Below are positions 3,371-57,903 of a stretch of DNA of 64,000 nucleotides, in pieces. The stretch lies in sequence record NC_054931.1, one strand, 5' to 3'. Source of the stretch: Escherichia phage T2. The translations under genes were made by a program, and so were the position numbers. Positions within the stretch are counted from its first letter, which is position 1; every line of letters starts with the position of its first letter. The notes beneath the pieces were generated by a model. That model was not told the DNA's origin. It did not search any database and saw only the letters and a program-made list of their open reading frames with translations.

Positions 3371-3446
3371 CACTTATAATTGGTCGAGGCAGTAGGGATC
3401 GAACCTACGACCCAGGACTTAGAAGGTCCTTGCTCTTCCTTCTGAG
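3371..3446 (-). tRNA. tRNA-Arg (anticodon TCT)
   Basis: Hand-folded cloverleaf; 7-bp acceptor CGAGGCA/TGCCTCG; anticodon loop CTTCTAA; encoded CCA. Confidence 0.8.
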
Positions 3447-3450
3447 CTAT

Positions 3451-3525
3451 GCCTCGTATTTGGCGGACGTGATAGGATTCGAACCTATAACCAATCGCTT
3501 AACAGGCGATCGCTCTGCCATTGAG
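3451..3525 (-). tRNA. tRNA-Asn (anticodon GTT)
   Basis: Hand-folded cloverleaf with all four arms; anticodon loop CTGTTAA; T-loop TTCGAAT; encoded CCA. Confidence 0.7.
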
Positions 3526-3529
3526 CTAC

Positions 3530-3616
3530 ACATCCAAATTGGTGGGGAGTGATGGAGTCGAACCACCCGAGTCGCAATGACAATGAATTTACAGTCCACA
3601 CCGCTACCTCTACGGG
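3530..3616 (-). tRNA. tRNA-Tyr (anticodon GTA), long variable arm
   Basis: 87 nt; acceptor GGGGAGT/ACTCCCC; anticodon loop CTGTAAA; overall layout parallels E. coli tRNA-Tyr; encoded CCA. Confidence 0.65.
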
Positions 3617-3626
3617 ATAACTCCCC

Positions 3627-3701
3627 CAAATTAATTTGGTGGCCCTGGGTGGAATTGAACCACCATCTGGCGATTATGAGTCGCTTGCTTGAACCTTCCA
3701 G
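3627..3701 (-). tRNA. tRNA with CAT anticodon (elongator Met or lysidine-type Ile)
   Basis: Cloverleaf with acceptor GGCCCTG/CAGGGCC; anticodon loop CTCATAA; encoded CCA. Confidence 0.7.
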
Positions 3702-3719
3702 CTACAGGGCCAAATTTTC

Positions 3720-4124
3720 TTATTTTATGTAATATTTATTTAAAAACTTTCTAGCTTGAGTATGGCTAACATTTATAGCGTTTGCATAATTTTTAATAAA
3801 ACCTCGTTCATCCATATTAAAATTTTCTAATATTTTTAATCGTCTAGTTATCTCATCTTTGCTTAAGGTACTTGCATTATTTTTAGAAATTTTTTCTAAG
3901 GACTGTGCCGAGTGTTTTCGACCATTAAAATTAAAATTTTTAGATTTTGGAGGAAATCTATCATTTAGTCTCGCATCTTTTGTATTTTGATTATTAGTTG
4001 CGCAATATATGTTATTTAATGAATATGGTCCTTTATCACCGAAACGGCACATGCAGTATTCATGACCCTTTCTTCCACGCTTATCATATTTTCCCGTTGA
4101 TTTCCACCAATAGCCATTCATCAA
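3720..4124 (-). CDS. putative free-standing HNH-type endonuclease-like protein with C-terminal HTH-like tail
   Basis: 134-aa ORF in the gap between the two tRNA subclusters; N-terminal His/Cys/Asn-rich segment (GHEYCMCRFG...NNIYCATNNQN) resembles an HNH-type fold; C-terminal NYANAINVSHTQARKFL resembles a helix-turn-helix. Confidence 0.4.
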   Translation of the reverse strand: MMNGYWWKSTGKYDKRGRKGHEYCMCRFGDKGPYSLNNIYCATNNQNTKDARLNDRFPPKSKNFNFNGRKHSAQSLEKISKNNASTLSKDEITRRLKILENFNMDERGFIKNYANAINVSHTQARKFLNKYYIK

Positions 4125-4245
4125 AAGTTAAATTCCATTCAATGTTTCTACGTATAGCAGAATTCCGCTGAGAAATATTTTGCATAATCTTCTTTCATCA
4201 CAAATTTCTCTACTTATTCAATACACCGAGCTAAATCAGCAAAAC

Positions 4246-4335
4246 TGGCGGAGGCGATAGGATTTGAACCTATGAGTCGCCGGAGCGACTGCCGGTTTTC
4301 AAGACCGGTGCATTAAACCACTCTGCCACGCCTCC
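4246..4335 (-). tRNA. tRNA-Ser (anticodon TGA), long variable arm
   Basis: Sequence matches recalled T4 tRNA-Ser; anticodon loop CTTGAAA; directly abuts tRNA-Pro (Pro-Ser dimeric precursor as in T4). Confidence 0.85.
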
Positions 4336-4337
4336 AG

Positions 4338-4411
4338 TCTCCATACAAGGATTTGAACCTTGGACCTCCTGATCCCAAATCAGGCGCTCTACCAAACTGA
4401 GCTACACGGAG
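4338..4411 (-). tRNA. tRNA-Pro (anticodon TGG)
   Basis: Cloverleaf; anticodon loop TTTGGGA; CCA not encoded. Confidence 0.8.
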
Positions 4412-4421
4412 TAAATTAAAT

Positions 4422-4495
<74 letters not shown>

Positions 4496-4500
4496 AAATT

Positions 4501-4587
4501 TGGTGCGAGAAGTGGGACTCGAACCCACAAGGAAATCATTCCGCAGCATTTTAAGTGCTGTGCCTTTACCAATTTGACCATTCTCGC
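4501..4587 (-). tRNA. tRNA-Leu (anticodon TAA), long variable arm
   Basis: Matches recalled T4 tRNA-Leu (GCGAGAATGGTCAAATTGGTAAAGGCACAGCACTTAAAATGCTGCGG...); abuts tRNA-Gln. Confidence 0.9.
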
Positions 4588-4588
4588 G

Positions 4589-4661
4589 CTGGGAATAAAG
4601 GACTCGAACCTTTGCATCTAGCAGTCAAAGTTCTATGCCTTACCAACTTGGCTAATTCCCA
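4589..4661 (-). tRNA. tRNA-Gln (anticodon TTG)
   Basis: Cloverleaf; anticodon loop CTTTGAC; CCA not encoded; first gene of subcluster I. Confidence 0.8.
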
Positions 4662-12249: not shown

Positions 12250-12577
12250 TATACTTCCAATGAGCGCTGATTTAGGAGAATCCATGGAAGGTTCTTCTAT
12301 CGACGTCACCTTTACCGCTCAATTAGAAACAGGTGAAACGTTAGTATCTATAAATATAACTAGTTACGAAGAAACTCCTGGAGTTTTAGTAGAAGAAAAT
12401 CGCTTATATGGAACATATGAATCTGTATTTGGTTTCGGAAATGACGCGTTGAAATATCGTTTAGGCGATGAATTTAAAACTGCTGCTTCATGGGAAGAAC
12501 TTCCTACTGATTCTATACTCAGTTGTATTTGTGGAAAGCTCCTCAAAACCTCCAGAAGACATTCACTTACGAAGTAA
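12221..12577 (+). CDS. 5.1-like ORF, N-terminal frame
   Basis: 118-aa track ORF overlapping the gene 5 end; its last 67 nt overlap a second open frame (see next feature). Confidence 0.45.
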   Translation: MMDRGLTLANILPMSADLGESMEGSSIDVTFTAQLETGETLVSINITSYEETPGVLVEENRLYGTYESVFGFGNDALKYRLGDEFKTAASWEELPTDSILSCICGKLLKTSRRHSLTK

Positions 12578-12777
12578 CATTAATATATGACTACCAAGAA
12601 CAAAGTGAATCTGGAGGTTCTGGCAGTAATTCTAGGTCATCTTCTGATACTACTGAACCGACAGATCCTCCTGCTCCAGTAAGAAAAACTCTAGTTAAAA
12701 ATTATACTAAAACTATAGTTGGAAATTGGAGTCGTTGGGCTAATAAATTGAGAAGCTATGTGTATGAGAGGCCATAA
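12511..12777 (+). other. open frame lacking an ATG, probable C-terminal continuation of the 5.1-like gene after a -1 frame change
   Basis: Frame opens right after a TGA at 12508-12510, has no Met codon, ends in ATAAATG overlap with gene 5.4 start. Confidence 0.35.
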
Positions 12778-13071
12778 ATGTCAGGATTAAGTTATGATAA
12801 GTGTGTTACTGCTGGCCATGAAGCGTGGCCTCCAACAGTTGTGAATGCTACACAAAGTAAAGTATTCACTGGAGGAATTGCTGTTCTCGTAGCAGGCGAT
12901 CCAATTACAGAACATACAGAAATTAAAAAGCCATATGAAACACATGGCGGAGTGACACAACCCAGAACTTCTAAGGTATATGTCACTGGAAAGAAAGCTG
13001 TTCAAATGGCTGATCCAATATCATGCGGTGATACTGTGGCTCAGGCATCATCTAAAGTATTCATTAAATAG
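12778..13071 (+). CDS. 5.4: PAAR-repeat spike tip protein gp5.4
   Basis: 97 aa, matches T4 gp5.4. Confidence 0.85.
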
Positions 13072-36934: not shown

Positions 36935-38500
36935 ATGACTATCAAAACTAAAGCTGAACTTTTGAACAAATGGAAGCCATTACTGGAAGGTGAAGGTTTA
37001 CCGGAAATTGCTAATAGCAAACAAGCGATTATCGCTAAAATCTTTGAAAACCAGGAAAAAGATTTCCAGACAGCTCCGGAATATAAAGACGAAAAAATTG
37101 CTCAGGCATTCGGTTCTTTCTTAACAGAAGCTGAAATCGGTGGTGACCACGGTTACAATGCTACCAACATCGCTGCAGGTCAGACTTCTGGCGCAGTAAC
37201 TCAGATTGGCCCAGCTGTTATGGGTATGGTACGTCGTGCTATTCCTAACCTGATTGCTTTCGATATTTGTGGTGTTCAGCCGATGAACAGCCCGACTGGC
37301 CAGGTATTCGCACTGCGCGCAGTATACGGTAAAGACCCGGTCGCTTCTGGTGCTAAAGAAGCATTCCACCCAATGTATGGTCCAGATGCAATGTTCTCTG
37401 GTCAGGGTGCTGCTAAGAAATTCGCTGCTTTGAAAGCAAGTGATACTCTTGAAGTCGGAACTATTTACACTCACTTCTTCCAGGAAACTGGTACTGTATA
37501 TCTGCAAGCTACAGAAGTTAAACAAATCGATGTCGGTGCTAGTGATGCAGCTAAATTAGATGCTGAAATTAAGAAACAAATGGAAGCTGGTGTACTGGTA
37601 GAAATCGCTGAAGGTATGGCTACTTCTATCGCTGAACTTCAGGAAGGTTTCAATGGTTCTACCGATAACCCATGGAATGAAATGGGCTTCCGTATCGATA
37701 AGCAAGTTATCGAAGCTAAATCTCGCCAGCTGAAAGCTGCTTACTCTATTGAATTAGCACAAGACCTCCGCGCTGTTCACGGTATGGATGCTGATGCTGA
37801 ACTGTCTGGTATTCTGGCTACAGAAATTATGCTGGAAATCAACCGTGAAGTTGTTGATTGGATTAACTACTCAGCTCAGGTTGGTAAATCTGGTATGACC
37901 CTGACTCCAGGTTCTAAAGCTGGTGTATTTGACTTCCAGGACCCAATCGATATTCGTGGTGCTCGCTGGGCGGGTGAATCCTTTAAAGCTCTGTTGTTCC
38001 AGATTGACAAAGAAGCAGTTGAAATTGCTCGTCAGACCGGTCGTGGTGAAGGTAACTTCATTATCGCTTCCCGTAACGTAGTTAACGTTCTGGCTTCAGT
38101 TGATACCGGCATTTCTTATGCTGCACAGGGTCTGGCTACCGGCTTCAACACTGATACTACCAAGTCAGTATTTGCTGGTGTTCTGGGTGGTAAATACCGC
38201 GTATATATCGACCAGTATGCTAAACAGGATTATTTCACTGTAGGTTATAAAGGTCCGAACGAAATGGATGCTGGTATTTACTATGCTCCATATGTAGCTC
38301 TGACTCCGCTGCGTGGTTCCGATCCGAAGAACTTCCAACCGGTAATGGGATTCAAAACTCGTTACGGTATCGGTATCAACCCATTTGCAGAATCCGCTGC
38401 TCAGGCTCCGGCTTCTCGCATCCAGAGCGGTATGCCTTCTATTCTGAATAGCCTTGGTAAAAACGCTTACTTTAGACGTGTATATGTTAAAGGTATCTAA
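36935..38500 (+). CDS. 23: major capsid protein gp23
   Basis: 521 aa, matches T4 gp23; codon usage typical of a highly expressed gene. Confidence 0.95.
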   Translation: MTIKTKAELLNKWKPLLEGEGLPEIANSKQAIIAKIFENQEKDFQTAPEYKDEKIAQAFGSFLTEAEIGGDHGYNATNIAAGQTSGAVTQIGPAVMGMVRRAIPNLIAFDICGVQPMNSPTGQVFALRAVYGKDPVASGAKEAFHPMYGPDAMFSGQGAAKKFAALKASDTLEVGTIYTHFFQETGTVYLQATEVKQIDVGASDAAKLDAEIKKQMEAGVLVEIAEGMATSIAELQEGFNGSTDNPWNEMGFRIDKQVIEAKSRQLKAAYSIELAQDLRAVHGMDADAELSGILATEIMLEINREVVDWINYSAQVGKSGMTLTPGSKAGVFDFQDPIDIRGARWAGESFKALLFQIDKEAVEIARQTGRGEGNFIIASRNVVNVLASVDTGISYAAQGLATGFNTDTTKSVFAGVLGGKYRVYIDQYAKQDYFTVGYKGPNEMDAGIYYAPYVALTPLRGSDPKNFQPVMGFKTRYGIGINPFAESAAQAPASRIQSGMPSILNSLGKNAYFRRVYVKGI

Positions 38501-38515
38501 TCTTTGACGATTTAA

Positions 38516-38540
38516 GGGACCTTCGGGTCCCTTTAGTTGT
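38516..38540 (+). terminator. hairpin GGGACC-TTCG-GGTCCC plus T-run after gene 23
   Basis: Perfect stem with TTCG tetraloop followed by TTTAGTTGTTTTT. Confidence 0.6.
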
Positions 38541-38548
38541 TTTTATGG

Positions 38549-38556
38549 TATAAATA
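38549..38556 (+). promoter_or_regulatory. late promoter TATAAATA (gene 24)
   Basis: Exact consensus ~30 bp upstream of gene 24 ATG. Confidence 0.6.
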
Positions 38557-38583
38557 AATCATATAAACCAAAAGGAAAGCGCA

Positions 38584-39867
38584 ATGGCTAAAATCAACGA
38601 ACTTCTGCGCGAATCAACCACAACGAATAGCAACTCAATCGGTCGCCCAAATCTCGTTGCTTTGACTCGCGCTACCACTAAATTAATATATTCTGACATT
38701 GTAGCAACGCAAAGAACTAATCAACCTGTTGCTGCTTTTTATGGTATCAAATACCTTAACCCAGACAACGAATTTACATTTAAAACTGGTGCTACTTATG
38801 CTGGCGAAGCTGGATATGTAGACCGAGAACAAATCACAGAATTAACAGAAGAGTCTAAATTAACTCTCAATAAAGGCGATTTATTCAAATATAATAATAT
38901 CGTTTATAAAGTATTAGAAGATACACCATTTGCTGATATTGAAGAAAGCGACTTAGAGCTGGCTCTTCAGATTGCAATTGTTCTTTTAAAGGTTCGTCTA
39001 TTTTCTGACGCAGCGTCAACAAGCAAATTTGAAAGCTCTGATAGTGAAATTGCGGATGCTAGATTCCAGATTAATAAATGGCAAACCGCGGTTAAATCTC
39101 GTAAACTTAAAACTGGCATCACAGTTGAATTAGCGCAAGATTTAGAAGCAAATGGATTCGATGCTCCTAATTTCTTGGAAGATTTGCTTGCAACTGAAAT
39201 GGCAGATGAAATCAATAAAGATATTCTGCAATCTTTGATTACAGTGTCAAAACGCTATAAAGTTACAGGAATTACTGATAGTGGATTCATCGATTTGAGT
39301 TATGCGTCTGCACCTGAAGCTGGTCGTTCATTATACCGAATGGTATGTGAAATTGTTTCGCATATCCAAAAAGAATCAACTTATACAGCAACGTTCTGTG
39401 TTGCTTCTGCTCGTGCCGCTGCGATTCTTGCTGCATCAGGTTGGTTAAAACATAAACCAGAAGATGACAAATATCTTTCACAAAATGCCTACGGGTTATT
39501 AGCTAATGGTTTACCGCTTTATTGCGATACTAACAGCCCATTAGATTATGTAATCGTTGGTGTAGTAGAAAATATCGGTGAAAAAGAAATTGTTGGATCA
39601 ATTTTCTATGCTCCGTATACAGAAGGTCTCGACTTAGATGACCCTGAACATGTAGGCGCATTTAAAGTTGTTGTTGATCCAGAAAGCTTACAACCGTCTA
39701 TCAGTTTATTAGTTAGATATGCTTTATCAGCAAATCCTTATACCGTAGCAAAAGATGAAAAAGAAGCAAGAGTAATTGATGGTGGAGACATGGATAAAAT
39801 GGCGGGTCGTTCAGATTTGTCTGTTTTATTAGGTGTTAAATTACCAAAAATTATTATTGATGAATAA
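38584..39867 (+). CDS. 24: capsid vertex protein gp24
   Basis: 427 aa, matches T4 gp24. Confidence 0.95.
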   Translation: MAKINELLRESTTTNSNSIGRPNLVALTRATTKLIYSDIVATQRTNQPVAAFYGIKYLNPDNEFTFKTGATYAGEAGYVDREQITELTEESKLTLNKGDLFKYNNIVYKVLEDTPFADIEESDLELALQIAIVLLKVRLFSDAASTSKFESSDSEIADARFQINKWQTAVKSRKLKTGITVELAQDLEANGFDAPNFLEDLLATEMADEINKDILQSLITVSKRYKVTGITDSGFIDLSYASAPEAGRSLYRMVCEIVSHIQKESTYTATFCVASARAAAILAASGWLKHKPEDDKYLSQNAYGLLANGLPLYCDTNSPLDYVIVGVVENIGEKEIVGSIFYAPYTEGLDLDDPEHVGAFKVVVDPESLQPSISLLVRYALSANPYTVAKDEKEARVIDGGDMDKMAGRSDLSVLLGVKLPKIIIDE

Positions 39868-39909: not shown

Positions 39910-40897
39910 TCAATCCAAGCTGGACGAAGTACATCTTACCATTTTAACTAATTCCTTTTTAATCAAAGAAGGATTATCTGCTTGAGTTAGAGTAATACCT
40001 TCACGAGAAGTTTCTTCCAAAATATCTTGAACAGTTAGCCCCATCACCTTTCCAAAATCCTTTGGACCAATTTCGCCAATTTTAGAAATAACGTTATTTA
40101 CACGGTTCAGTGTAACGTAACAAGCTAAAATTCCCACCAATTTGTTATCAGCTTCTGATAGTTCAACTTTAGCTTTAATAGGCTTATCAGACTTTTTCTT
40201 TTCACTAAATTTGGAATTCTTGCATTTAATTGCTACACGATTTCCATTATGAAGCCAAGAAGGATAACAAGGTTTCAATACATATCCTTCAGCAGTAAAT
40301 ACTTCGCCTTTTGCTTCGGCATTCCAAACGCATTTATTTGCATCAACTAATCCAGCATGGTCTACTGTAAAATTATAATCTTGGACGACAGAATCTAAAT
40401 CATTTGGCAATTTAATAAGCTCTTCAAATTTACCGCGACCTAAAAGTGGAGCAATTTTAAATTTAAATGTATTACAGAATGATTCCATCATATAATCATC
40501 AACATAAGTCACATCACCACTTTCTGTAGTGACAATAATGTCAAATACATAAAAATCTTTATCGCCATAATCAACATTCTTCTGAATGCCAGGTCCAGCG
40601 AATTCGCCAAAGACTTGATAAGATACAACCGCTGAGGTTTCCATAATATCTTGTACTGCTTTAATGGAATCAGCGTAATTCTTTAGAATAATTTCATACC
40701 CAAAGAAATCTTCAGCAGGAAGAATCGGTCCAGTACGTTTAGCACAAGTTACTTTATCACGCTCAATAATCAATGAGAAATTTGTGCCGTGAATCTTTTC
40801 ACGAGCTACCCATTCGCCGCCAGTCAATCCCAAGCTGTAAAGTTTTTCAATAAATTTAGAGTTGTAATGATTTTCAAGACTGCTACTTTTTAAACAT
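39910..40897 (-). pseudogene. rnlB: RNA ligase 2 (rnlB) with a frameshift at codons 5-6
   Basis: ATG at 40897 with GAGG Shine-Dalgarno reads MFKK then TAG; the remaining ORF (motif I EKIHGTN onward) is in another frame; ATG-to-body spacing is 2 nt short of a continuous frame. Confidence 0.75.
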
Positions 40898-40906
40898 AAT
40901 TAATCC

Positions 40907-41182: not shown

Positions 41183-41384
41183 TTTTCACCTTTTTATTGA
41201 TATGTCTTTTTCTATAGACAACTTTTTCTCGAGTTTCAAATTTATTCTTAGCAGTCATAGCTCGAGCCCATAATACAGCCACTTCTTTTGCATGTAAGTT
41301 TAATTCACGAGCAATTTCAATGAATGACTTTCCAGACTCATGAAGAGTAAACACCACAACCTCAGTTCTCATATTCAATCTCAT
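41169..41384 (-). CDS. hypothetical small protein with HTH-like segment (T4 24.3 position)
   Basis: 71-aa track ORF; SGKSFIEIARELNLHAKEV resembles a helix-turn-helix. Confidence 0.55.
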   Translation of the reverse strand: MRLNMRTEVVVFTLHESGKSFIEIARELNLHAKEVAVLWARAMTAKNKFETREKVVYRKRHINKKVKNGTV

Positions 41385-41439
41385 GTTATCGAGTTGGTGC
41401 CATTATATACATCATTTTCTGATTGTGTTTTGTGTGCTT

Positions 41440-41467
41440 TCAAAATGAAGAAAGGGGCCGAAGCCCC
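41440..41467 (-). terminator. minus-strand terminator after hoc
   Basis: Hairpin GGGGC-TTCG-GCCCC followed on the minus strand by TTTCTTCATTTT. Confidence 0.55.
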
Positions 41468-41473
41468 TTATGA

Positions 41474-42590
41474 TTATGGATAGGTATAGATGATACCAGT
41501 TTCTAAAGCAGTTTTATGAATGATGTATCCATTACGCGATTCTTGGACATCAACTTCTGGATAGTCTTTCATCATCTTCTGAAGAGTGTAACGATGCAGG
41601 TAGTATTTACTCTGGATCTTCAGTTTTCCAATCTTTACCTTCTTCAGTCATTTTTTGGATTTCATCCATAACCCACCAACCGCACCAGATGTAAGCTGAA
41701 GTACGATGTGGAAGAGGATGAACATAAGGTAATTCACCTTCTGGTTCTGGAGCAACTTTATCAGTTACCTGAACTTGACCTGTTGTTTTAACTGTTTTGC
41801 TATCATAATCAGTAGCAGTAACGACGGCAGTCACTTCAATAGTTTGACTTCCAACAGATGAAGTATCAACGGTATATACATTAGTTGACCCTTCTACAGG
41901 AGAAGAATCTTTCTTCCATGAATAAGTAATTTGCGCTTCTTCTGGAGCATCAGTAACATTAGCAGTAAATGTAGCCGAAGCATCTTGTTGAACGTTAATA
42001 GAAGGAGGAGTCAATGTAACCTGTGGATTCATTGTCTTCTTATTAACCGTTAATGACACTTCATTAGAAGTAACGCTTAGTGCATCATAATCTGTCGCGG
42101 TTACTTGAGCTACACACTTGATTTTTTAACTCCACTTGTAGTTGGAGTATAGCTAAATGTAGAGTTAGTTTCTCCACCAACTTGTGAATCATCTACATAC
42201 CACTGATACGTAGCAGATGCTCCATCAGGTTGAGAAGCTAAGGCAGCAGTAAATTGAACTGGGGTTCCGATTACTCCAGCGTCAGGGCTATTAGGAGTTA
42301 CAGCTAAGGTGGTCGTTTGTGTCTTATTTTGAACTGTGATAGTTGTAGTAGCTTCTGCTGTTTCAGCTTCAGCTTCTGGAATTGTATTTGTTGCAACTAC
42401 TTTAATAGTCTTTTGACCGGCAGGTATAACTAAAAGTTGCTTCAGCTCCATCTTGTGGAACATTATCTACGCTCCAAGCATAGGTAATAGTTCCACCTTC
42501 AGTTTGACCACTGGGTGCAGCAGTAAACTGCTTGGTTTCATCAATAACCCCTGTCGGTGTTTTAGGAGTTATATCAACTGTAAAAGTCAT
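41474..42590 (-). pseudogene. hoc: hoc (highly immunogenic outer capsid protein) disrupted by three frame changes
   Basis: Hoc sequence is recoverable as four consecutive pieces in different frames: MTFTVDITPKTPTG...ATFSY / AGQKTIKVVATNT...TPTTSGVK / KCVAQVTATDYD...WKTEDPE / YYLHRYTLQKMMKDYPEV...IIYTYP. Confidence 0.8.
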
Positions 42591-42599
42591 AAGTTATCC

Positions 42600-43280
42600 T
42601 TATTTTAATGTTACGAAAGAAGAATTGCGTGTTTCACGAATTAAAACTGATCCGTCGCGGTTAATGTAATAAATTAAGCTAAATAAAGTTTGGTGTGCTG
42701 ACGCATGTTCAAAACTAGTTGGGTGAGATTTCCAATCCGGAGTTTCAGCAATCCATTGATAAATCCACCAAGGAACAGTGCAGAATCCTGGATTTTTTCC
42801 AATCAGCTGAAGATTCGGACTAAAGTTTTCCGGAAGAGTAAATACAGACGGCTTTTCAGATTCAATAATCTCAGCTACAGCTTGTTCAAACTTTTCTTCA
42901 ACAAAAGGAGTATCTTCAATCAAAACATCGGTATTTTCAGGAATTTTATCCGTTTCTACTACTTCAATTTTAATGTCAGATTTAACCGGAGAATCAATCA
43001 GAAGTGCTGCTTCTGGATTGACTTCTTCATCGTCATATTTTAATCCCTCTGCGGCATCAGCAGCATCAATTAAGTCTTTAATAGATAACCCATCAGTCTC
43101 TGGCATAGGTTCACTAGCGAGCTTCTGGAGGGCTTCTTCAATATCAACAACGATATTATCAAAAGATTTATTCTTTTTGACCTTTATACCAAACTGTTCA
43201 GCATATTCAGCTAATTTAGCTTTAGCTTCTTTGTTATCATCAAGAGCCTTCAGCTCTGCAATATAATCTTTATCTATCAT
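42600..43280 (-). CDS. inh: inhibitor of prohead protease
   Basis: 226 aa, matches T4 Inh. Confidence 0.85.
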   Translation of the reverse strand: MIDKDYIAELKALDDNKEAKAKLAEYAEQFGIKVKKNKSFDNIVVDIEEALQKLASEPMPETDGLSIKDLIDAADAAEGLKYDDEEVNPEAALLIDSPVKSDIKIEVVETDKIPENTDVLIEDTPFVEEKFEQAVAEIIESEKPSVFTLPENFSPNLQLIGKNPGFCTVPWWIYQWIAETPDWKSHPTSFEHASAHQTLFSLIYYINRDGSVLIRETRNSSFVTLK

Positions 43281-43293
43281 AATATTTCCTCAG

Positions 43294-43301
43294 TATAAAT
43301 A
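43294..43301 (+). promoter_or_regulatory. late promoter TATAAATA (uvsW)
   Basis: Exact consensus ~30 bp upstream of uvsW ATG. Confidence 0.55.
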
Positions 43302-43330
43302 TAGATATATTTATTACATGGTATTTAGAC

Positions 43331-53746: not shown

Positions 53747-55803
53747 TACATTTTGAACTTTTTAGACATTCCGTTGATGTTAACCAAAGAAGCTAATATT
53801 TGAGAAACTTCGTTTTCCTCTTCTTTTGATTCTTCTACAAGGAATTGATTAAATCCAGCCATTGGACGAACTTCACCAGTTTCCATTAAATGGTCTCCAT
53901 CATATACTGATTCTTCTAATTGTTCAGAAGGAGGAACGATTGTACCTTCGATTAGATACTTGTTATAAGCAGTTTCTTTCATAAAGTACGTACTTACTTT
54001 ATTAATCTTCAGTAAAATTCCACGCGGTAGAATAACTTCAGCTTCTGATGGAAATCCTGATAAATGACCTGGAACGATAACTTTGATTCGCTCAGCTCCT
54101 TTAATTACCATACCCACGCTAGTTTCAGCATCTTCATTAGCATATGTAGAATGACTACCCATATGCATCAAATCTTCTGCATCAACGGAACCTTCTCCTT
54201 CTCCAGAAAATACTGCACCGGAATCATCTAGAGCCATATAGTTTTTACCATGCTCGCCAAAGATATTTGGTTTAAGTGATGTCGATACGAAGTTCTTGAA
54301 ATAGAACATTTTGTTTTCAATGTTGTGACGCAAAGTTTTAAAGGTAACTTCTTGTCCGCGATAAAGCGTAGTTCCTGGAGGAAGAACTGAACCTTTAGCG
54401 AATGCAGAATCCAACGTCTCGATGTGCTTAATAGCACGTTCCATATATTCTTCACGGGTAGAATCTGGTTTACCCAAAAGGAACGAGTTCATTTCAACAT
54501 ATGAATCTGCACAATAATCTTCAATTACATCAGACTCAGCCTGAGTCAGTCCTTTTGGAGTTACTTCAGTGCTTGCATATTCATATGCCTGGGCAGCAGA
54601 TTCATTAATCAATTTATAAATGCCATTCATGACAAATTGAATAATAACTGTCTTTTCATCTGGCGTAGCTTTAGAACCTTTAACCAAATCATTGATAATT
54701 TTCTTAATAACATCAAAGCTATTAGAAATATTAATATCAGCAAGATCACTTAAAATTTTATCAGTTTTATAATCAAAGAATTCTTTATTCTTTAAATATT
54801 CTTGAGAACCTTGATATGTTATATCGCTCTGTAACTTGATAGATGGATCACGTAAACGTGCATGGGCTAATGCAATATGATTTCGGAAGTTTTCTAGTTC
54901 ATAATCGCTAGATTTAAAACGAGAAGCACTTCTCATACCACCGATAGCTCCTTTGCTGAAGTTTGAACCAATCTGAATAACGCCAGAGTTCATTGGTCCT
55001 TCTGCTTTATATACCGGAACTTTAGATTCAAACTCTTGATATTTCTTGGCAGCGAAGCTATCACCCTGAAGTGAAGCATCGACAGTAGAATATTGAGCTT
55101 GTGCTGCTAATCGACGACTAATTTTAGTTTTCTGAATAACCGCTTGGTCAGTACGTTTATCATTTTCTAAAGCAATAGAAGCAGCAACAGCGACAGCTTT
55201 AGGAACAGCATCACCTGTTTTAACATCTACATAAACATCACCGACCTTCGATTCAACTTTTGCGAATAACTCAGTTGAAATAGGAGGTACACCTGGAATG
55301 TCTTCTAAATTGGCATTTTTACGGTAAACCATAATATATGCATACTTTTTATCATAGTCCCAGATTTCCTTTAAAAGAACATATCGACCTGCTCCTTTAG
55401 TACGTACTAAACGGTCAGCAATAACTTGCATTTGACGAGCTGCGCCATTTGTTTTACTTTTTAGTACGCGGAATAAGCATGCGTCGATTTTATACTGTTT
55501 CATTGTTTGAAGAGCAGTATCAAAAACAGCATTAATGACGCCAATTGGATTTCCACCCAAGTTTCTAAGCTTAACCAGCGATAATTTCTCGTTGACACCT
55601 ATCATTACGATATGCATCATTTTATCGCCTGGCTTAACGTTTTTATTTGTATCACCACCAGAGGTGTATGTACAAAATCTAAATCCAGGAAGCACGCTTT
55701 CTTCGCCGGCTTGAATAGCAAAAATTTGTGGTATTTTATGCTTAGGATTTAAGTTAACAACCGGCGCCGAAGCGCCGTCAAATAATTCTGTAATAAGTTC
55801 CAT
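53746..55803 (-). CDS. Alt-like ADP-ribosyltransferase, paralog B
   Basis: 685 aa; N-terminus MELITELFDG (packaging/cleavage signal); R-S-E ART motifs (LYRGQ, STSL, EAEVILPRG) in C-terminal domain. Confidence 0.85.
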   Translation of the reverse strand: MELITELFDGASAPVVNLNPKHKIPQIFAIQAGEESVLPGFRFCTYTSGGDTNKNVKPGDKMMHIVMIGVNEKLSLVKLRNLGGNPIGVINAVFDTALQTMKQYKIDACLFRVLKSKTNGAARQMQVIADRLVRTKGAGRYVLLKEIWDYDKKYAYIMVYRKNANLEDIPGVPPISTELFAKVESKVGDVYVDVKTGDAVPKAVAVAASIALENDKRTDQAVIQKTKISRRLAAQAQYSTVDASLQGDSFAAKKYQEFESKVPVYKAEGPMNSGVIQIGSNFSKGAIGGMRSASRFKSSDYELENFRNHIALAHARLRDPSIKLQSDITYQGSQEYLKNKEFFDYKTDKILSDLADINISNSFDVIKKIINDLVKGSKATPDEKTVIIQFVMNGIYKLINESAAQAYEYASTEVTPKGLTQAESDVIEDYCADSYVEMNSFLLGKPDSTREEYMERAIKHIETLDSAFAKGSVLPPGTTLYRGQEVTFKTLRHNIENKMFYFKNFVSTSLKPNIFGEHGKNYMALDDSGAVFSGEGEGSVDAEDLMHMGSHSTYANEDAETSVGMVIKGAERIKVIVPGHLSGFPSEAEVILPRGILLKINKVSTYFMKETAYNKYLIEGTIVPPSEQLEESVYDGDHLMETGEVRPMAGFNQFLVEESKEEENEVSQILASLVNINGMSKKFKM

Positions 55804-55806
55804 GAT

Positions 55807-57903
55807 TTATCCTTGAACGAACTTGTAAGGCATGTTTGTAATATCTATGCAAGACGCAATAATTCCGAGAGATGATTCTACTTTCTGTTTAACATTTGAT
55901 GAAACAAATGATGCAAAGTCAACTCTGTCTTCTATTTCAATATCACCTGTCATTGCAACTACTTCGCCGGTTTCCATTAAACGGTCTCCGTCATAGATTA
56001 CCGATTCGGTGAGTTCTTCTGTGGTCATAACTTCAGCTTGAATGAGTTTTGTATTATTAGACGTGGTTCCGTCATTATTAGAAGCATCAGTTATTTTATT
56101 AACTTTGACCATCAATCCGCGCGGTAGAATAACTTCAGCTTCTGTTGCTATTCCGAGACTTCCTGGATATACAACATTAACTTTATGAGCTCCATCAATT
56201 GCCCATCCTATTTGAACTTTAACGTATTCAGGATTTTCTTTATACGCTCTTATTTCGTTTGGATTAATAGTTATTCCTTCTTCATTTTTATCAACTGTTA
56301 ATTCATTGCGAGCTTCTGGTTCTAAAAGACCAATACCAGCATGTGTAATTCCAAAACGTCCAAAAATGATAGGAGTTAAAGAAGTAGATACAAAATTTCT
56401 GAAATAGAACACTTTATTTTTAACTAGCGCTTCGTATATAGGAGCAGTCATACTTTGAGCACGATAAACTGTAATGCCTTCCGGTATGCGGTCACCATTT
56501 TCAAAAGCTGAATCTAAATTATTTATAGCAGATTCAATTTCTTTTTCACTCATTACATCATATCGTTCTGGATTGTAACGACCTAAAAGAAGATTATTAA
56601 TGTCTGTATATCCTGAACCACAATACTCTCTAATACCGCGCTTTTGTGATGGTGTATATTTAGAACCATCACAAGCAATAGTAATATCAATCATTGGACC
56701 AGCACCAATTCCAGAAAAACTATAAATCATTCGTTTGAGGAATTTAGTTTTTGCTGCATTCCAGGCATTTTTAGTTATTTCTCCCCAGACTTCATCTGGC
56801 TGCCCTTTACGAGTTTTATTATGTTTATCAAGCCAATTATCTTTATATTCTTCAAAGAATTGATTGACAGCTGCCGCGTATTTCTCTAAACATTTTATTG
56901 AAGTAGTTGGTTCATTTTTAATCGCGTTAAAAATTACATCTTTAATTTTTTCAGAAACTTCATCAACCTCACTTTTTGAAAAGAATTTATAGTCATAGTG
57001 AAGTTCATTCGCAGTTCCTTCGGCAATAATTTTTGCTGCCTTTGTTTTAGAAGCTAATGAATTAATTCCAATTTTCATTTCTTCTGCTTCGGGAATTAAA
57101 GGAGCGGTAGCAGGCTTATTGAAATTAGCTGCGGTAGATTCATACTTCTGGAATAATTCACTTTCAAATCTAGAAGATTCCAATGATTGACTTTGCGCAA
57201 TTGCTCTACGGGAAATTTTAACTTTAACGATTACAGCTTGGTCAGTACGTTTATCATTTTCTTGTGCAATAGATGCTGCAATTGCCTCGTTTTTAGTTAC
57301 TTGAGCTCCAGTATCTTTATTGATATAAACATCACCGACCTTCGATTCAACTTTAGTAAAGAGCTCGGTACTAATTTCCGGAACTCCTGGAATGTCTTCT
57401 AGTGATACATTTTTGCGATGTATAAGAATATATGCATACTTTTTATCATAATCCCAGAGTTCCTTAAGAAGGACGTATCTGCCACCTGAACGACTACGGA
57501 TAAGTCTATCAGCAATAACTTGAATTTGTCGAGCTTGACCAGCAGTTTTAGACTTAAGAATACGAAGCATACAAGCATCAATTTTATACTGACGCATTGT
57601 TTGCATTGCAACAGTAAAAACTGAATTGATATAATTAATTGGGCTTGGACCAAGACCTTTTAATTTAGCAATTGAACCTTTAGCAGTTAATGTAAAAGGA
57701 ACAATATGCATCATTTTATCGCCCATTTTTAAATCGCGATTAGTATCACCTCCAGATGTATAGGTACATAAACGAAAGCCTGGTTGTTCAATTGCATCAT
57801 CAACATGAACTGAAAAAATTTGTGGTATTTTCTTCTTTGGATTTAAGTTTGTAATCGGAAGAGTAGTATCTTCGTCAAATAATTCTGTAATGAGTTCCAT
57901 CAT
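55807..57903 (-). CDS. alt: Alt-like ADP-ribosyltransferase, paralog A (probable start at second Met, 57900)
   Basis: 697-698 aa; N-terminus (M)MELITELFDEDTT; ART motifs VYRAQ, STSL, EAEVILPRG. Confidence 0.85.
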   Translation of the reverse strand: MMELITELFDEDTTLPITNLNPKKKIPQIFSVHVDDAIEQPGFRLCTYTSGGDTNRDLKMGDKMMHIVPFTLTAKGSIAKLKGLGPSPINYINSVFTVAMQTMRQYKIDACMLRILKSKTAGQARQIQVIADRLIRSRSGGRYVLLKELWDYDKKYAYILIHRKNVSLEDIPGVPEISTELFTKVESKVGDVYINKDTGAQVTKNEAIAASIAQENDKRTDQAVIVKVKISRRAIAQSQSLESSRFESELFQKYESTAANFNKPATAPLIPEAEEMKIGINSLASKTKAAKIIAEGTANELHYDYKFFSKSEVDEVSEKIKDVIFNAIKNEPTTSIKCLEKYAAAVNQFFEEYKDNWLDKHNKTRKGQPDEVWGEITKNAWNAAKTKFLKRMIYSFSGIGAGPMIDITIACDGSKYTPSQKRGIREYCGSGYTDINNLLLGRYNPERYDVMSEKEIESAINNLDSAFENGDRIPEGITVYRAQSMTAPIYEALVKNKVFYFRNFVSTSLTPIIFGRFGITHAGIGLLEPEARNELTVDKNEEGITINPNEIRAYKENPEYVKVQIGWAIDGAHKVNVVYPGSLGIATEAEVILPRGLMVKVNKITDASNNDGTTSNNTKLIQAEVMTTEELTESVIYDGDRLMETGEVVAMTGDIEIEDRVDFASFVSSNVKQKVESSLGIIASCIDITNMPYKFVQG

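Follow-up and report, generated by a model that had tools for sequence, protein, structure and literature searches.

Does phage T2 still carry a working gene for the head decoration protein Hoc and, if it does not, what has disabled it? In the work of Ishii and Yanagida (1975, 1977), the lack of Hoc in T2 reportedly contributed to the definition of the protein. According to a review, Hoc is absent from this phage (PMC8396182). The DNA concerned lies at 41474-42590 of a 64,000-nucleotide stretch of T2 (NC_054931.1), hereafter the window, to which all coordinates refer, and a sequence-only reading of it had proposed that hoc is a multiply frameshifted pseudogene. We report that the minus strand from 42590 to 41474 is almost certainly hoc of phage T2, inactivated by three independent small deletions. 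Specifically, four colinear open reading frames (ORFs) are set apart by three frame-breaking deletions relative to T4 hoc, as had been proposed. We also discuss what the deletions imply for the capsid, whether the fragments might still be used, and how hoc has fared in related phages.

Sequence comparisons

Window 41300-42800 was compared with 50,697 GenBank phage records using megablast. The three deletion junctions were searched with 40-nt queries centred on each junction, such that every 28-nt megablast seed had to span the junction, and were also searched in the IMG/VR viral contigs. Reference entries for T4 Hoc were UniProt P18056, PDB 5VF3 chain Z and 8T1X, and PHROG 1149. The survey of hoc in relatives was based on 60 evenly spaced records out of 1053 Hoc-encoding records, and T4 proteins were matched to the window using tblastn.

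Identity of the hoc locus

Six records, all T2 or SV76, matched 41300-42800 at 100% identity (T2 MH751506, AP018813, PV648363, PV648364 and PV958097, and SV76 OM339528); five of these span the whole interval, while the sixth covers 1,496 of its 1,501 bases, up to the record end. Among the matches listed, T4 and other Tequatroviruses covering the entire interval were 93-94% identical, the value for T4 versus T2 DNA being 93%. In the annotated regions of both phages hoc is flanked by inh (hoc.1) and 24.3 on the same strand and in the same arrangement, and hoc is 1117 bp long in T2 versus 1131 bp in T4.

When 41440-42620 (minus strand) was aligned with T4 hoc, column identity averaged 96% and T2 showed three gaps in all, of 11, 1 and 2 bp; this alignment had been suggested as a check on the pseudogene, and both the sizes and the flanking peptides ATFSY and KTEDPE correspond to those read from the letters. 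Filling the gaps results in a protein of 376 residues, 23 of which differ from T4 Hoc, and this frame-restored protein matches the T4 Hoc chain 5vf3_Z over residues 1-376 (E = 2e-229). Like T4 Hoc it has three Ig-like domains followed by a C-terminal capsid-binding domain, and its last 45 residues are 100% identical to those of T4. Hence, the T2 locus resembles T4 Hoc over the whole length of the protein and also occupies the hoc position (inh-hoc-24.3, same strand); it differs from T4 hoc in being broken into four reading-frame fragments through the deletions of 11, 1 and 2 bp. The fragments match phrog_1149 ('Hoc-like head decoration') at colinear and non-overlapping positions (Table 1).

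Table 1. The T2 hoc locus, its fragments and lesions, with window coordinates unless stated otherwise
Feature	Position	Strand	Description and evidence
hoc pseudogene of T2, whole	41474..42590	-	Original ATG to original TAA; alignments with T4 hoc and four intact relatives; synteny
Fragment 1, 62 aa	42402..42590	-	Native start and RBS; Hoc residues 1-55, then TCRSKDY and TAA; phrog_1149 745-801, E = 5e-16
Fragment 2, 117 aa	42110..42463	-	Off-frame ATG; Hoc residues about 60-160; ends ...VKKSSV, TAG; phrog_1149 801-901
Fragment 3, Hoc residues 160-331	41607..42125	-	Third frame; ends ...KTEDPE, TAA; phrog_1149 964-1104, E = 3e-49
Fragment 4, Hoc residues 332-376	41474..41611	-	phrog_21694, E = 9e-21; phrog_1149 1120-1150
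Lesion 1, 11-bp deletion	between 42426 and 42425	-	GTACTAAAAGG lost; after ...ATFSY; T4 codons 56-59; T4 alignment
Lesion 2, 1-bp deletion in A-run	42124/42123	-	Codon 160; T4 alignment and six-phage alignment
Lesion 3, 2-bp deletion	between 41612 and 41611	-	AT lost (CCAGATAGT to CCAGAGT); after KTEDP(E); T4 codon 331
Intrinsic terminator	41451..41469	-	Hairpin (AAGGGGCTTCGGCCCCTT plus T-run) downstream of hoc; identical to T4
A6 frameshift in phages other than T2	about 1206-1240 of the retrieved PM108 and 101117BS1 segments		Same ...SGVKKSSV* ending as at T2 lesion 2

Fragments and remaining expression signals

The ORF listing gave four minus-strand ORFs across 41474-42590, of 62, 117, 150 and 33 aa, in agreement with the claim that no single frame exceeds 150 residues. 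Fragment 1 breaks off after 55 native residues, within the first Ig domain, and the 32 nt upstream of it, AAGGA included, are identical to T4. Fragment 2 comprises the end of Ig domain 1 and a PKD-like Ig domain 2 (Pfam PKD, E = 4.5e-6), and its ATG is preceded, at a distance of 8 nt, by a GGAG. Fragment 3 carries Ig domain 3 (Pfam Ig_3 and I-set) together with the first half of the capsid-binding domain and has no start codon near its beginning; its first start codon is the GTG at 42059, giving the 150-aa ORF 42059..41607. Fragment 4 supplies the remaining half of that domain, including the conserved ESRNG loop, and is 100% identical to T4, its sole ORF being the 33 aa read from the ATG at 41575 (41575..41474).

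The hoc strand has no exact late promoter (TATAAATA) immediately ahead of inh or hoc, which is uninformative on T2 specifically because T4 does not differ from T2 in this upstream DNA. From the unchanged terminator, RBS and start codon we infer that the locus probably is still transcribed late in infection and that a 62-residue N-terminal stub probably is started from it. Judging from their sequences, fragments 1-3 could still be translated, and translation in any reading frame would meet a stop within 1-7 codons of each lesion.

The three deletions

The frame changes had been placed near 42425, near 42120-42128 and near 41610, and the alignment located them at these places (Table 1). Stop codons follow lesions 1, 2 and 3 within 7, 4 and 1 codons, respectively, after the out-of-frame tails TCRSKDY-TAA, (K)SSV-TAG and E-TAA. 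The 11-bp and 2-bp deletions are flanked by microhomology of at most 1 bp, and lesions 1 and 3 are simple small deletions.

At the site of lesion 2, the placement of which inside the homopolymer is arbitrary, a six-phage alignment showed GTTAAAAAATC (A6) in T2, GTTAAAAAAATC (A7) in the intact relatives fPS-2 and G8, and an interrupted run, AAAAAGAAT, in T4. Because intact relatives carry A7 and T2 has A6, lesion 2 looks like a one-base replication slippage in an A7 run, i.e. a slip of the kind described by the Streisinger model.

Reproducibility of the lesions

The junctions of lesions 1 and 3 were each present only in the six T2/SV76 records among the 50,697 phage records, while that of lesion 2 was present in these six and in four other phages. 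None of the three junctions was found in the IMG/VR viral contigs, where the A7 allele was found once, in a contig corresponding to phage G8.

It could be argued that T2 in reality has an intact hoc and that errors of sequencing or assembly produced the frameshifts, in particular since lesion 2 lies in a homopolymer (A6 versus A7), which is a classic error site. The 11-bp and 2-bp deletions, however, are located outside homopolymers, and all three junctions are exactly common to the six records, which represent several deposits with different named propagation hosts and lengths between 163,826 and 163,904 bp. Three T2 records are base-for-base identical to the window across the 4.5 kb surrounding hoc, T2 stocks differ at gene 5.1 and are thus not copies of one assembly, and the Hoc-less phenotype of T2 has been published (PMC8396182). 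Since the six records are not copies of each other and all share the three junctions, we regard sequencing error as virtually excluded. The T2 locus thus combines clear orthology to hoc with disabling lesions that are reproducible in independent sequences, as expected for a unitary pseudogene.

Consequences for the capsid

A cryo-EM and AlphaFold study assigned Hoc residues 281-376 to the capsid-binding domain, in which the contacts with gp23 are made by beta-sheet residues, Tyr293, His295, His299, Arg300, Tyr304 and others, and by the conserved loop Glu355-Gly359 (PMC10385173). Lesion 3, at codon 331, splits this domain such that the contacts at 293-304 and the loop at 355-359 are on separate fragments. 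The proposal that the capsid-binding region is separated from the Ig-like domains was consequently right about the separation but incomplete, given that the capsid-binding domain (281-376) is itself divided.

A T4-type Hoc would be a single polypeptide in which the Ig-like domains are joined to the complete capsid-binding domain 281-376, and what the T2 locus offers is four ORFs in different frames. With no product linking Ig-like domains to a whole capsid-binding domain, nothing can therefore occupy the gp23 hexamer centres. Taking the literature together with the reading frames, we are highly confident that T2 heads are Hoc-less and that the three hoc deletions are the cause. That the virion probably lacks Hoc had been anticipated from the sequence and agrees with the published absence of the protein from T2 (PMC8396182).

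The major capsid protein appears to have kept its side of the interaction. T2 gp23 (36935-38500, plus strand) is 97% identical to T4 gp23 and the Hoc-docking segment, residues 326-344, is identical. As a separate observation, nearly all differences between the two gp23 proteins fall within residues 138-203. Because the docking site is identical to that of T4, T2 heads would be expected still to accept Hoc supplied in trans; unless it is so supplied, Hoc display on T2 is impossible. Effects on adhesion, immunogenicity and display, which the sequence-only reading had also put forward, may reasonably be expected from T4 hoc-minus work.

Hoc is highly antigenic, and studies in immunology and phage therapy that compare T4, HAP1 and T2 make use of its absence from T2. 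In comparisons of mucus adherence or clearance between T2 and T4 other differences confound the outcome, while the Hoc difference as such is genetically solid.

Possible recoding or new role for the fragments

Inactivation is not the only way to read a gene in four pieces. Full-length Hoc might still be made through programmed recoding, by ribosomal frameshifting or by bypassing as in T4 gene 60. Translational bypassing in gene 60 of the T-even phages constitutes a precedent, and lesion 2 is on AAA AAA, where tRNA-Lys can slip. But in T2 hoc three separate events of different kinds (+1, -1 and +1) would all be required, and neither lesion 1 nor lesion 3 has a slippery heptamer, take-off motif or suitable P-site codon. 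Around lesion 1 the RNA has no significant structure in comparison with shuffled sequences (z = -1.26), and Rfam predicted only the eight tRNAs in the window. Moreover, the shifts are not conserved, as 56 of the 60 sampled Hoc-encoding records gave one uninterrupted match. Thus, neither a slippery or take-off sequence with a stimulatory element nor a conserved frame change was found at T2 hoc. Together with the report that T2 virions are without Hoc (PMC8396182), this makes recoding exceedingly improbable.

Alternatively, the fragments might be kept for a new role away from the capsid, e.g. as a free Ig-like domain protein. The intact start signals of fragment 1, the GGAG ahead of fragment 2 together with its whole PKD-like domain, and the fact that hoc has suffered no large deletions yet would all be in keeping with such a role. 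The same fragment architecture was, on the other hand, found in no other phage among the GenBank phage records and IMG/VR, so maintenance by selection is unsupported, fragment 3 lacks a start codon near its beginning, and the neighbouring dispensable rnlB and 5.1 are damaged likewise, which fits plain decay. We consider a retained function very unlikely, and in what follows T2 hoc is treated as a gene inactivated by its three deletions.

hoc in relatives and the A6/A7 run

The hoc gene is intact in the great majority of relatives. Besides the 56 records with a single uninterrupted match, frameshift-split genes were seen in the survey only in T2 (three pieces) and vB_EcoM_FN; the two-piece matches of PNJ-9 and PG7 have different origins, in that the former has a variant Hoc and the latter two Hoc-like genes. 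The hoc of vB_EcoM_FN is known here only as a match in two pieces with two annotated CDSs.

An A6 run with the ending seen at T2 lesion 2 (...SGVKKSSV*) is also present in vB_EcoM-101117BS1 (MZ234018), PM107 (MZ234042), PM108 (MZ234051) and UPWr_E2 (PP418986), i.e. in four phages from two groups of GenBank records. These differ from T2 in having a four-Ig-domain hoc variant, a different flanking haplotype and a single lesion, and their A6 is either the outcome of a recurrent slippage hotspot or a homopolymer sequencing error. The A7 tract is present in many Tequatrovirus hoc genes, is interrupted in T4, and A7 and A6 occur in different phages. It is conceivable, although we think it improbable, that the tract is a hotspot at which repeated slippage turns Hoc off in wild populations. 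If A6 and A7 do interconvert within populations, capsid decoration would behave as a contingency-like locus, with T2 as a lineage that was switched off and then decayed further; in T2 reversion of the run length would be useless because two other lesions remain.

A known parallel is T4 HAP1, a spontaneous hoc nonsense mutant in which C496T introduces a stop at 44% of the protein length (PMC10580926). As in T2, the loss of hoc function in HAP1 arose naturally, and HAP1 forms viable particles without Hoc (PMC10580926). HAP1, however, has a single point mutation and was laboratory-selected, whereas T2 has three independent frameshifts that are fixed in every stock.

Timing of the inactivation

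A T2 counterpart in the window was found by tblastn for 75 of 104 T4 proteins, and frameshifts among these 75 are confined to hoc, with three lesions, rnlB, with two, and 5.1, with one. An apparent frameshift in uvsW was rejected, as the T4 record notes sequence discrepancies there and the T2 gene reads through as an uninterrupted ORF of 503 aa. Of the six lesions, five are within about 2.1 kb, in the two neighbouring dispensable genes hoc and rnlB, and such clustering is expected if only genes free of selection can retain frameshifts.

The sequenced T2 stocks are distinct lineages, differing at 5.1, yet carry the same hoc lesions; being common to all of them, the lesions predate the divergence of these stocks. 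In all T4 records listed hoc is intact and in one piece, an observation that speaks against routine laboratory passage as the origin of the lesions. Comparison with five relatives identified five T2-private substitutions, four of which are synonymous third-position changes, these numbers being tiny and confounded by recombination. They hint that T2 hoc may have been under selection until fairly recently and that its inactivation may be recent, although the substitutions are too few, and recombination too frequent, for more than a hint.

Annotation and relation to earlier work

The Hoc-less phenotype of T2 has long been known and the split annotation is public; in this sense the finding is already known, and it leaves the current understanding unchanged. 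In GenBank the T2 fragments go under the name 'head outer capsid protein' or 'Hoc-like head decoration protein', and a curated record has no annotation at the locus. In the literature we found statements that T2 lacks Hoc but no explicit description of the T2 hoc frameshifts. The classic phenotype can now be tied to exact lesions, three small deletions at known positions, and the fragments labelled 'Hoc-like head decoration protein' should be annotated as one pseudogene.

Other differences between T2 and T4 in the window

The rnlB gene (RNA ligase 2; 39910-40900, minus strand), two genes downstream of hoc, has two 2-bp deletions relative to T4. The one near 40886, at codon 5/6, results in M-F-K-K-stop, and the one near 39938 is close to the 3' end and alters the C-terminus; both junctions are present only in the six T2/SV76 records. 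The rnlB ORF annotated in T2 records uses an internal TTG start and is without the first 27 residues.

Gene 5.1 (12284-12780, plus strand) has a 1-bp deletion at about 12514, where GATTCTGATACT has become GATTCT-ATACT and the frame shifts after residue 77. This junction was seen only in MH751506, AP018813, SV76 and the old T2 fragment AF448490, and is absent from PV648363, PV648364 and PV958097. PV648363 instead has GATTTCTATACT, with an extra T three bases upstream, and is in frame (D-F-Y-T instead of D-S-D-T), which represents either a compensating +1 insertion or the ancestral state.

T2 is without the homing-endonuclease genes segE, segD, segC and segB, which T4 has at the positions corresponding to 43281-43330, 38500-38584, about 12775 and the tRNA region (3384-4661); these seg-gene differences are a known T2/T4 polymorphism. 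No tblastn match in the T2 window was obtained for T4 ipI, trna.3, e.7, 5.3, 30.5 or 30.8. The T2 window has eight tRNA genes, with the tRNA region at 3384-4661. Finally, T2 has two full-length tandem alt-like ORFs at 53755-57900 (minus strand), to which T4 Alt is 70% (57900-55810) and 41% (55803-53755) identical, while T4 has alt and the short remnants alt.-1 and alt.-2 at this position.
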